A program made the translations under genes and the position numbers. DNA of 28,782 nucleotides, from the NCBI GenBank assembly GCA_039934015.1, contig JBDTMY010000055.1, forward strand, positions 1-28,782, given 5' to 3'. The notes beneath the pieces are model-generated. The model saw only the letters and a list, made by a program, of their open reading frames with translations, made no database searches and was not told the origin of the DNA. This document shows, piece after piece, positions 25,364 to 27,994 of this stretch (positions are counted from its first letter, which is position 1; every line of letters begins with the position of its first letter). This stretch comes from Chloroflexota bacterium. GTDB taxonomy: Bacteria > Chloroflexota > Limnocylindria > P2-11E.

Positions 25364-26093
25364 GGCCCCGGCCGTTCGCACCGCGCCGAGGGCGCGCGAG
25401 GATCCGGCGGTGCGACGCCGCCGGGCGCGGGCGATCCTGACGCGACTCGCCAAGGCGAATCCCGACTGGGGGCCGACGCTCGAGTTCGGCAGCCCCTTCG
25501 AGCTTCTCGTCGCGACGATCCTTGCCGCGCAGGCACAGGACGAGCACATCAACCAGGTCACACGCGCGCTGTTCGTGAAATACCGCGGACCCGCCGATTA
25601 CGTGAAGGTCCCAGTCGAGGAGCTTGAGCGCGACGTTCACGCCACGGGCTTCTTCAGGATGAAGGCGAAGGCGATCCGCGGCGCCTCGGAGCAGATCCTC
25701 ACCGAGTTCGGCGGCGAGGTCCCGGGCGATATGGATTCGCTCGTGCGGCTCCGCGGCGTCGGTCGCAAGACCGCATCGATCGTGCTTGGGAACGCTTTCA
25801 GCGTGCCGGCGATCGCCGTCGACCGGCACGTCGAGCGCGTCGCCACCCGGCTCGGCTTCACCCGGAAGGGAGCCGACGGCATCGAGGAGGAGCTGCGCTC
25901 TCTCTATCCCAAGCGGGACTGGGTGAAGGCGACATGGAATCTCGTGCTGCACGGCCGGCGCATCTGCACCCCGACGCCGAAATGTCCGATCTGTCCGATC
26001 ATCGAGCTCTGCCCGTATCCGAAGAAGACCAGAGCCGCGCGCACCACGCGCCAAGCACCGCGACCGCGATCAGCAGCGCGTCAGAGAGGATGA
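25347..26093 (+). CDS. nth: Endonuclease III (HhH-GPD, 4Fe-4S)
   Basis: PFELLVATILAAQ, LRGVGRKTA, AVDRHV, C-x5-C-x2-C-x5-C; GTG 25347. Confidence 0.93.
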   Translation: MSPARRAPAVRTAPRAREDPAVRRRRARAILTRLAKANPDWGPTLEFGSPFELLVATILAAQAQDEHINQVTRALFVKYRGPADYVKVPVEELERDVHATGFFRMKAKAIRGASEQILTEFGGEVPGDMDSLVRLRGVGRKTASIVLGNAFSVPAIAVDRHVERVATRLGFTRKGADGIEEELRSLYPKRDWVKATWNLVLHGRRICTPTPKCPICPIIELCPYPKKTRAARTTRQAPRPRSAARQRG

Positions 26094-26379
26094 CCACAGC
26101 CGTGTCGGTGAGCTGATCGGCCAGGTACACGGCCGGCAGGACGCCCAGCGCCGCACAGATCACATAGCCCGCACCCACAAGCGCCCCGTGATAGACGGGG
26201 GCTTCGGAAGCCCGTTTTCCGGCCAAAATGCCAGAAACGAAGAGACCGAAAACGGATGCTAGCGCTGCCGGGATCGGGGGCAGCACAGCGCGACCCAGGA
26301 GTGTTACCGCGACGGCAAGCACGACACCCGCGAGGATCGCGGGCCACTCGAGGCGGGGTACCTGTCGCTGCGAGTTGAT
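25999..26379 (-). CDS. Small 4-TM membrane protein (TIGR04086-like); start ATC 26379 or GTG 26322
   Basis: LEWPAILAGVVLAVAV...GILAGKRASEAPVYHGALVG; the first TM helix begins upstream of GTG 26322. Confidence 0.65.
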   Translation of the reverse strand: MNSQRQVPRLEWPAILAGVVLAVAVTLLGRAVLPPIPAALASVFGLFVSGILAGKRASEAPVYHGALVGAGYVICAALGVLPAVYLADQLTDTAVVILSDALLIAVAVLGAWCARLWSSSDTGRAR

Positions 26380-26405
26380 GACGCGACTCTAAGACGTGGA
26401 TCCTT

Positions 26406-26444
26406 CTAAAAAGAAACCGATCCGCGAGGCCTACGCGGATCGGT
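26406..26444 (-). terminator. Intrinsic terminator
   Basis: Perfect 11-bp stem ACCGATCCGCG/CGCGGATCGGT, followed by TTCTTTTT on minus. Confidence 0.85.
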
Positions 26445-26469
26445 GGGTTCGCGAAAGGTGCCAGATGAG

Positions 26470-26501
26470 AATTAACAAGCGCGACGATCGCTCGCCGCGC
26501 T
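26470..26501 (-). terminator. Intrinsic terminator directly after the Lys-rich peptide gene
   Basis: 10-bp stem (one G-U), GCGA tetraloop, then TGTTAATT. Confidence 0.7.
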
Positions 26502-26507
26502 CAAGAC

Positions 26508-26561
26508 TTACTTCTTCTTCGCTTTCTTGGACTTCTTTGCAGCCTTCTTCTTTGCTGGCAT
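26508..26561 (-). CDS. 17-aa lysine-rich peptide MPAKKKAAKKSKKAKKK (absent from the ORF track)
   Basis: AGGAGGTGA SD, 7 nt, ATG; TAA stop; own promoter and terminators. Confidence 0.85.
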   Translation of the reverse strand: MPAKKKAAKKSKKAKKK

Positions 26562-26596
26562 TTGTGAATCACCTCCTCTTGGCCACGCATTGTCGT

Positions 26597-26627
26597 TATA
26601 TAGACACATTCACGTCGCAAATGTCAA
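26597..26627 (-). promoter_or_regulatory. Sigma70-type promoter of the Lys-rich peptide gene, with internal dyad
   Basis: TTGACA (26627-26622)-N19-TATATA (26602-26597); ACATT-N9-AATGT dyad 26606-26624. Confidence 0.65.
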
Positions 26628-26640
26628 CACATGAGCGGTC

Positions 26641-26889
26641 TCAGGTCGTCGGCGTCGTCGGCGGACTCGCTCCTCGGAGTTTCAGGATCACGCGCTCGCG
26701 GAGCTGCGCGGGAGCGCCCTCTGAGGTGGCGCAGTCGCGAAGACGGTCGAGGAAGCGGGCCTCGAGGCCCAACTCGTCACCGCACTCGTCGCATCCGCTG
26801 ACGTGCGCGCGGACCGCGGCGAGTTCCTTCTCGTCGAGCTCGAGGTCGAGGAAGGCGTAGAGCCGTTCGACGCAGTCGTTGCAGTCCAC
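26641..26889 (-). CDS. rsrA: ZAS zinc-binding anti-sigma factor (RsrA/RshA-like)
   Basis: N-terminal CNDC, HVSGCDEC (HxxxCxxC), APAQLRERV; GGAGG SD; follows the ECF sigma gene. Confidence 0.9.
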   Translation of the reverse strand: MDCNDCVERLYAFLDLELDEKELAAVRAHVSGCDECGDELGLEARFLDRLRDCATSEGAPAQLRERVILKLRGASPPTTPTT

Positions 26890-26899
26890 TCGCGCCTCC

Positions 26900-27475
26900 C
26901 TAACTCTTCTGCGGCGTCCGCACGGCGGCGATGCCGCGCTCGCGAGCGAGGTCGTACAGGCGCTTCTGAAGGAACTTCCGGCCTCGGTGGAGCCGCGACA
27001 TCACGGTCCCGATCGGGATGCCGAGCATCTCGGCGATCTCCTTATAGGAGAAGCCCTCGACATCGAGGAGGACGGTGGTGCGGAACTTCTCCGGAAGCTC
27101 TTCGAGCGCATCTGTCACTTCGGTATCGACCACGCTCTTGAGCAGCTCCGCCTCCGGATCGGGCGAAGAAGAAGCAGCACGGTCGCCGGCCATCCGGCGG
27201 TACAGGGAGAACTCGTCGACGCCATCGAGGTCCGTTACCTCCGGCTGCGCCGCCTTGCGCCGGTACATGTTGATGAACGTGTTGGTGAGGATCCGGAAGA
27301 GCCAGGCCTTCATGTTCGTGCCGAGCGTGAACTGTTCGCGGAATCGGAACGCCCGGATGTAGGTCTCCTGCACGAGGTCCTCCGCATCGGCCTCCGACCG
27401 CGTCATGCGCAGCGCGGTCCGGTAGAGCGCATCCAGATGGCGGAGCGCCTCGGCTTCGAACTCGTCGCCTGCCAC
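26900..27475 (-). CDS. sigR: ECF sigma factor, SigR/SigH-like
   Basis: [63 protein letters not shown]; GTG 27475. Confidence 0.9.
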
Positions 27476-27481
27476 CTGCCC

Positions 27482-27517
27482 ACTGTATCGAACGTATCCG
27501 CACACGGGCCGCATTCC
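27482..27517 (-). promoter_or_regulatory. Nested sigR promoters (SigR/SigH-type and housekeeping leaderless)
   Basis: GGAAT (27517-27513)-N19-GTT (27493-27491); TACAGT (27487-27482)-N6-GTG. Confidence 0.7.
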
Positions 27518-27553
27518 CAGCCGTCCCCCGTTCATACCCGGTAGGCTCGGACC

Positions 27554-27994
27554 ATGAGCACCGCCGCGATCAGCGCCGAACAGGTAAGGGCCTTCCTCAC
27601 GTCGTACGCGGCCGCTTTCCAGCGATCGGACAAGGATGGCGTCGCGGACTGTTACAGCTACCCGGCGCACGTCCTGACGTACAACGGCGGTGTTCGCCTT
27701 CTGCCGGTCGCCTCGCGTGAGGCGTGGACGGTCGTCATCGAGCGCATCCTCCAGATGTACGGCGCGATGGGTGTTCGCACCGCCGCGATGCGCGAGCTCC
27801 GCGTCACCGACGTGTCACCGCAGGTGGCGCAGGCACATGTGGTGTGGTCGCTTCAAAGCGACGGCGATCGGCCGCTCTACGATTTCGCGGCGACCTACAC
27901 GCTGGCGCTCATCGACGGTGCGCTGAAGATCGTTCAGGTCGTCAGCGAGAACGAGCAGCCGAAGTTCCAAGGAGTGATGCGCGGGCGCGGGTGA
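27554..27994 (+). CDS. NTF2/SnoaL-like protein
   Basis: [13 protein letters not shown]...[24 protein letters not shown]; TAGGCT-N6-ATG leaderless arrangement. Confidence 0.75.

Follow-up and report, generated by a model that had tools for sequence, protein, structure and literature searches.

Lysine repeats of the KPAA type, as found in AlgP and PhaF of Pseudomonas, are DNA-binding sequences that also associate with polyphosphate granules (PMC9239181), and repeats of the AlgP/PhaF type also bind RNA in a lysine-dependent manner (PMC12818456); in the chlamydial protein Hc2, the number of repeats is variable (PMC2848022). Here we describe P1, a micro-gene on the minus strand of a 28,782-nt contig from an uncultured soil bacterium of the Chloroflexota (the window, meaning the whole stretch analyzed), with the predicted peptide product PAKKKAAKKSKKAKKK. 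This peptide is like AlgP, PhaF, chlamydial Hc2 (PF07382), and the C-terminal tail of HupB in its Lys and Ala content, with some Pro, Ser, or Thr, and in its expected disorder, and it shares with the histone H1-like proteins the absence of acidic and hydrophobic residues. The histone H1-like proteins or tandem-repeat domains, however, span 100 to 350 residues and are usually joined to a folded domain, whereas P1 is a free-standing frame of 17 codons with its own promoter and terminator. Longer members of the class to which P1 belongs score below the cutoffs of the HC2 and H1-like profiles (PF07382 and NF038053/NF038052), and for a 33-residue class member, HC2 is present in 17% of the members of the closest cluster in the ESM Atlas that bears a name.

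The tiny ribosomal proteins bTHX, bS22, bL37, and eL41 have fixed lengths and a conserved, Arg-rich, nonrepetitive sequence that fits defined rRNA sites. The P1 peptide resembles them in size and in being extremely basic; like theirs, its gene has strong expression signals and is of a kind that gene finders often leave out. Unlike them, it is a Lys/Ala low-complexity sequence of variable length. SgrS/SgrT, RNAIII/delta-haemolysin, and SR1/SR1P are dual-function small RNAs (sRNAs) that encode a peptide. P1 is like these in having a short, abundant transcript, a small open reading frame (ORF), presumably translated, and a single-stranded segment complementary to another mRNA; its predicted partner is a 3' untranslated region (3'UTR), unlike the ribosome-binding site targeted by the dual-function sRNAs.

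On balance, we favor the reading that the P1 micro-gene is translated and that its product is a cytoplasmic polycation, whose charge would let it act on polyanions, whether nucleic acids or others. The micro-ORF, MPAKKKAAKKSKKAKKK (26508 to 26561, minus strand), extends over 17 codons from an ATG at 26561-26559 to a TAA at 26510-26508. After Met, the peptide consists of 10 Lys, 4 Ala, 1 Pro, and 1 Ser, with no Asp or Glu; at 17 residues and a net charge of about +10, it is strongly basic and, like the tiny ribosomal proteins, no longer than 35 residues. The ORF is preceded by an extended Shine-Dalgarno (SD) sequence, AGGAGGTGAT (26577-26568, minus strand; core AGGAGGTGA, 26577-26569), and a 7-nt spacer; the SD is complementary over ten bases to the expected 3' end of 16S rRNA. 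No other complete ORF of 8 to 60 codons in the source assembly (1.78 Mb, 68.5% GC, 67.7% complete by marker genes) reaches 40% Lys while lacking acidic residues, and P1 lies far beyond chance expectation. A preliminary description of this locus had listed the SD, the spacer, the 17 codons with 10 Lys and no acidic residue, the TAA, an upstream TTGACA, and two downstream hairpins, set in an AT-rich island; all are present on the minus strand, and the island has a GC content of 0.45 to 0.51, against 0.65 to 0.72 in its flanks.

A DNA search with a 501-base query, spanning the upstream rsrA-like gene (rsrA) through the second terminator, recovered the P1 locus in 24/24 sampled genomes of the genus, and at every recovered locus the ATG frame encodes a Lys-rich peptide of 13 to 19 residues. 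The pattern ATGCCNGCNAARAARAAR is found in 79 of the 91 family genomes, usually as two copies each, and in 3 of 207 genomes from the three other families of the class; its reversed control gave a single match in 301 genomes. Members missed by the pattern start with GTG or carry Ala as their second residue. The second copy in the source assembly, P2 (MPAKKKAAKKAKKGKKK), lies elsewhere and is cut by a contig end at its stop codon. Four unpublished genomes (G022, G112, G127, and G239) are included in the tallies, and no claim is made on them alone.

As a safeguard against circularity, a set of P1 loci (n = 30) was gathered with no reference to the peptide, through synteny or the conserved 3' motif alone. 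The preliminary description had proposed a scan for the frame and SD downstream of rsrA in related genomes, and in this set both are kept throughout: 30/30 loci have an SD followed by an in-frame Lys-rich micro-ORF of 13 to 19 codons. The SD is unchanged at all P1 loci. Length changes always comprise whole codons, the phase of the start codon relative to the AAG periodicity is never lost, and any of the four bases can stand in third position of codons 2 and 3, with the residues M-[P/A]-A-K-K-K constant. Whole-codon insertions and deletions, kept phase, free third positions, and a fixed N terminus together argue for selection on a translated product. Among relatives, the start is ATG or GTG, and K, A, and S are exchanged within the peptide. 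The gene order sigH-rsrA-[ORF]-DUF3792, with nth converging, is constant across genera and in the order's second family.

RNA from soil samples contains this sequence. For the 231-nt P1 unit, 29 to 53% of sampled words were present in 14 runs from 8 studies, all filed as RNA-seq and 8 of the 14 as metatranscriptomic; for a 701-nt stretch around P1 that includes rsrA, the figure in RNA runs was 9 to 13%. When four RNA runs were compared with 1.8 kb around P1, a 168-nt contig (depth, 49.8) covered 26408-26572 and a 165-nt contig covered 26414-26578; both are 95.8 to 96.4% identical to the window and therefore derive from close relatives. RNA depth was zero across the downstream membrane-protein and nth genes (25900-26387) in 4/4 runs and across rsrA in two of the four. 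The contigs have one end inside the tail of terminator 2 and the other a few bases short of the probable transcription start at about 26590, as would be expected of a minus-strand transcript some 180 nt long that continues past hairpin 1. The RNA is thus a discrete short transcript that carries the small ORF, presumably translated, from the SD to the terminator tail. The unit had been described as standalone, and this stands insofar as it has its own conserved promoter and a discrete RNA; no terminator was found between the rsrA stop and the P1 promoter (window 26628-26643), however, so read-through from sigH-rsrA is possible and the term is not absolute. In run X25 (RNA-Seq strategy, source METAGENOMIC), a 502-nt contig joins rsrA to P1, and may represent either DNA or read-through.

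P1 belongs to a widespread class of polylysine micro-genes. One genome per species was scanned for GGAGGTGA followed after 4 to 8 bases by RTG-SCN-GCN-AAR-AAR-AAR, i.e., an SD plus M[P/A]AKKK, which gave at least 119 loci. The figures given here for the class are among the matches listed. ORFs of up to 40 codons account for 101 of these 120 matches; they contain little other than K, A, T, P, V, S, G, and R, and they come from Patescibacteria, Eisenbacteria, Limnocylindria, Verrucomicrobiota, and Nitrospirota, with further lineages including NC10, Dormibacterota, Zixibacteria, Omnitrophota, Ignavibacteria, and others. Class ORFs of up to 60 codons (n = 111) have a median length of 21 residues (range, 11 to 59) and consist of 55% Lys and 26% Ala, with no acidic residues; the final residue is Lys in 96/111. 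Their stop codons (L065-L183) are TAA in 61 cases, TAG in 49, and TGA in 1, a bias that also holds in high-GC genomes and fits the evolution of ORF length, since single-base changes of AAA or AAG give such stops. A terminator-like site lies within 110 nt of 77/111 class ORFs, compared with 48/333 random positions, and most class members have a single terminator straight after the ORF. The same residue is coded by AAA in low-GC lineages and by AAG in high-GC lineages.

No curated protein or RNA family covers the class. The preliminary description had recognized no named family, and neither Pfam, NCBIfam, Rfam, nor the solved structures supplied one for the sequences searched. Pfam and NCBIfam gave no match at cutoff for longer class members (32 to 59 residues), with HC2 reaching 8.5 bits against a cutoff of 40, and none for a 33-residue read containing the P1 peptide, which at 17 residues is itself under the scanners' 20-residue limit. 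A 20-residue P2-type relative matched no PDB chain at E values up to 10, a weak test for a low-complexity query. Rfam searches of the window (gathering thresholds) and of related loci (permissive thresholds) returned only tRNAs and one chance-level match. Ten class members of 32 to 59 residues are absent from a collection of 15 billion proteins; the ESM Atlas holds look-alike clusters of 31 to 39 residues, which are unnamed. A literature search on sequence strings and topics turned up no account of micro-genes of this kind, although its coverage is incomplete and does not prove absence. Gene finders miss these ORFs because they are too short, and low-complexity filters drop the sequence.

In the model that we favor, a conserved sigma-70-like promoter would drive the P1 transcript of about 180 nt, and an SD of maximal strength would load ribosomes onto the 17-codon frame. 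The first Met would probably be removed, given Pro at position 2, to leave a peptide of 16 residues, 10 of them Lys and none acidic. This peptide has no hydrophobic core or signal sequence and would most likely be cytoplasmic, where it may coat or condense polyanions: DNA and the nucleoid first, then RNA and ribosomes, or polyphosphate. Its mode of action would be analogous to that of the Lys/Ala-rich tails of histone H1, AlgP, PhaF, and Hc2. An HTH_17 gene directly upstream of P2 and the repair genes found nearby provide a context that points to DNA. Base-excision repair genes lie near both Limnocylindria copies, a UDG-family glycosylase gene at P2 and nth at P1; the Verrucomicrobiota micro-genes (L075-L173) have a PolB-type 3'-5' exonuclease gene downstream, with a clean terminator between; and the Eisenbacteria micro-genes (L073-L174) have uvrA within a few hundred bases downstream. 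Four repair-type genes in three lineages are suggestive of a DNA-related role.

If such peptides are made, bacteria of many phyla encode a polycation in their genomes, which would be the smallest possible counterpart of the histone H1 tail or of protamine. It could affect nucleoid compaction, the stability of RNA and ribosomes, polyphosphate handling, and the balance of charge within the cell, for which polyamines and magnesium usually receive the credit. The P1 locus is a good entry point, with two differently controlled paralogs, RNA in soil, and a conserved predicted antisense link to the operon for the ribosomal stalk.

Several considerations weigh against this reading. Translation of P1, removal of Met, the location of the peptide, and its binding targets are all points that we infer, and a peptide of 16 residues would bind polyanions weakly and unspecifically unless it were very abundant. 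The RNA contigs are unstranded, their direction being assigned from the fit of their ends to the promoter and terminator. The repair-gene neighborhoods come from three lineages in a small sample and were grouped post hoc. When 36 P1 loci are aligned, the 3' end of the transcript (linker plus terminator 2) is more conserved than the ORF, and a purely peptide-centered account leaves the conservation of the 3' half unexplained.

The 3' half itself offers a candidate partner. The linker, GGCACCTTTCGCGAACCCACCGA (26440 to 26462, minus strand), is invariant and single-stranded, and it is complementary to the rplJ-rplL 3'UTR in related genomes. The most conserved stretch of P1 is this linker, with the motif GGCACCTTTCGCGAACCC[A/G]CCGA, followed by terminator 2; the flanking proteins are just 40 to 70% identical between genera. 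The motif was present in 38/38 family genomes and in the single genome (1/1) of the order's other family, usually as two copies per genome, and in 0/161 genomes from the rest of the class. Directly before the terminator of rplJ-rplL, some 115 nt downstream of the operon's genes, the second copy is found in opposite orientation; such twin copies are found, for example, at L189, L204, L206, L210, and L228 in relatives, and the pair is conserved across the order. Because the second copy is reversed behind rplJ-rplL, the P1 transcript would be complementary to the rplJ-rplL 3'UTR over 23 to 24 nt. The predicted duplex is perfect in the order's second family (22 Watson-Crick pairs and 2 G-U pairs). 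Where the two copies differ by T/C, all three differences (3/3) are compatible with G-U pairing, and one position has changed in both copies; counter to pairing, three genera have a central mismatch. At the sequence level we regard the complementarity as real, and an invariant 3' segment predicted to pair with the rplJ-rplL 3'UTR across the order is new here.

These features make it conceivable, though we regard it as doubtful, that P1 specifies a dual-function RNA, which would both encode the polylysine peptide and, through its invariant 3' segment, form a duplex of about 24 nt with the rplJ-rplL mRNA in the 3'UTR of the latter. The duplex would be long enough for RNase III, and the supply of a polycation would be coupled to ribosome synthesis. 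Whether the transcript stops at hairpin 1 or extends into the pairing segment could then depend on translation of the Lys frame, whose end lies 4 nt ahead of that hairpin. A broader form of this proposal would make the polylysine micro-genes an undescribed, near-universal class of bacterial genes. A different pairing was given by RNAalifold, which joined the linker (CACCUUU) to P1's own SD (GGAGGUG) in 22/22 sequences, without covariation. As a feature of the class, a 3' anti-SD clamp was rejected: duplex energies were -12.8 kcal/mol against -12.5 kcal/mol for controls (p = 0.33), and anti-SD 5-mers were not enriched class-wide (18% versus 21%). An SD clamp is at best weakly indicated, as a local possibility at P1.

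The P1 peptide might instead be a specific ribosome component or associated factor that occupies a defined rRNA pocket, as bTHX, bS22, bL37, and eL41 do. Such a role would suit a very short and very basic peptide that has a strong SD and seems to be abundant, and whose gene, found in nearly all family genomes, behaves like part of the core; the predicted pairing with the stalk operon likewise links P1 to ribosome synthesis. A defined pocket is hard to reconcile, however, with free drift in length (13 to 19 residues within one genus, 11 to 59 in the class), with exchanges among K, A, S, and T, or with two paralogs per genome. The P2-type relative and the 33-residue read matched nothing in PDB and NCBIfam, respectively, although low complexity makes these weak tests. 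We therefore judge a ribosomal role unlikely on the grounds of length and sequence drift, with the rplJ-rplL link keeping it alive.

Ten Lys codons among 17, followed by two hairpins in succession, also recall a regulatory leader peptide, in which the speed of the ribosome over the Lys codons would control hairpin 1 and read-through and so sense charged tRNA-Lys. Hairpin 1 (26476 to 26503, minus strand) begins 4 nt past the stop codon, so that a terminating ribosome would melt it. Its U-tail is weak in the source genus and full in a sister genus (TTTTTTGATTT), and its stem varies between genera with compensation; the RNA contigs read through it. Terminator 2 (26407 to 26444, minus strand), by contrast, is strong and near-invariant between genera. 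It comprises hairpin 2 (26444-26416), with an 11-bp stem and the loop TAGGCCT, and the tail TTTCTTTTT; compensatory stem changes in the order's other family and in genus g16 indicate that it is an RNA structure. The RNA contigs end in its tail, with zero depth across the membrane-protein gene. Whether folded singly or as a consensus, the sequences give the two hairpins and perhaps a pairing of SD and linker, but no antiterminator, and the downstream genes differ (DUF3792 at P1, a CAP-domain gene at P2, and exonuclease or UvrA genes in other phyla), none of them belonging to a lysine pathway. Given the strong end terminator, the unrelated downstream genes, and the single-terminator design of most of the class, a Lys-sensing attenuator is very improbable.

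Least credible, and in our view barely worth entertaining, is a noncoding sRNA in which the Lys-rich frame is an incidental purine-rich stretch with no functional product: a 3' segment and terminator more conserved than the ORF, a complementary partner at rplJ-rplL, and a discrete short RNA would all suit it, but it is contradicted by the coding signature, with start codon, SD, phase, and Lys identity kept at every locus while synonymous sites and length vary, as well as by the same type of peptide in many phyla with wholly different flanking RNA and AAA replacing AAG, and it matches no Rfam family.

The promoter assigned to P1 has a -35 hexamer, TTGACA, that is read directly at 26622 to 26627 (minus strand) and is invariant in 35/36 aligned P1 loci from several genera; the order's other family has TTGCAA. 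The -10 region is an AT-rich block, TGTGTCTATATAAC (26595 to 26607, minus strand), conserved in the P1 alignment, and the whole promoter block, TTGACA...TGTGTCTATATA, is kept in 35/36 related loci. Candidate -10 hexamers are TATATA (26602-26597, with a 19-nt spacer) and TCTATA (17-nt spacer). Both are imperfect, and for that reason, together with their distances from the -35 box, a scan by spacing and consensus called no canonical promoter at P1. The exact -10 hexamer and the start site at about 26590 are accordingly provisional assignments. The 5' leader, AATGCGTGGCCA... (26562 to 26590, minus strand), is short and conserved and includes the extended SD. Other candidate elements were rejected. 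By inspection, a SigR-type promoter (GGAAT-N18-GTT) is absent upstream of the P1 ORF, and although the linker contains TGGCAC, its spacing to any GC element is off by 2 nt for a sigma-54 promoter. A dimeric operator was also discarded, the palindrome being limited to TTCGCGAA and broken in the twin copy.

P2 is always flanked by a UDG-family glycosylase gene on one side and a CAP-domain gene on the other, an arrangement that is syntenic across genera and in the order's second family. Directly ahead of it is the HTH_17 gene (C90:91-312, minus strand, on a contig of the source genome outside the window; also L026:2704-2964), of the excisionase/BldC type, with its own TTGACA-type promoter upstream. 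It encodes about 73 to 86 residues (Pfam HTH_17, E = 2.9e-11), and its stop codon lies about 35 nt before the P2 micro-ORF; the UDG-family glycosylase gene is the next gene upstream. The HTH_17-P2 pair is kept throughout the order, the source genome included, and no such pairing with micro-genes was found outside Limnocylindria in our sample. The two copies are thus kept under different control, P1 behind sigH-rsrA with its own promoter and P2 behind the HTH_17 gene. About 20 to 45 nt after the P2 stop (L023-L034) is a hairpin, GGCGCCGCGGGCGGGCGGCGCC, which is invariant across genera, loop included, and has no U-tail; when a twin was looked for, the hairpin proved to be single-copy per genome.

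Elsewhere in the class, the Eisenbacteria micro-ORFs (L077, L078, L107, L115, L140, and others) have a conserved GGACCTGGCACGTCC 10 to 30 nt past the stop codon, before the terminator hairpin, and a sigma-54 activator gene upstream. Two loci labeled Bifidobacterium/Bifidobacteriaceae (L087 and L126) are 70 to 80% identical, in protein or DNA, to Verrucomicrobiota loci, and one labeled Acidiferrales (L138) is identical to the same extent to a Limnocylindria locus, which suggests that these three are misbinned contigs in public metagenome-assembled genomes (MAGs).

Upstream of P1 in the window are genes for an RsrA-like anti-sigma factor of the ZAS type (26641 to 26889, minus strand; NCBIfam TIGR03988, 65 bits against a cutoff of 62.5; Pfam zf-HC2) and a SigH/SigR-like ECF sigma factor (26900 to 27670, minus strand; TIGR02947, E = 1.8e-63, under its cutoff; Pfam Sigma70_r2 and r4_2). 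The rsrA stop (26641) is 13 nt ahead of the P1 -35 box. Among named records, the closest are a soil Chloroflexi MAG, with 84% identity across 3.1 kb and an identical peptide, and several Candidatus Limnocylindria MAGs; the rsrA-like gene is therefore not a sign of an actinobacterium, and the host is a Limnocylindria-type Chloroflexota. Downstream of P1 lies a gene for a DUF3792/TIGR04086-like membrane protein (25999 to 26322, minus strand), and beyond it, about 400 nt from P1, nth (endonuclease III, plus strand) converges on this gene. The DUF3792-like and nth frames overlap by about 95 bases, at 25999-26093 of the window.

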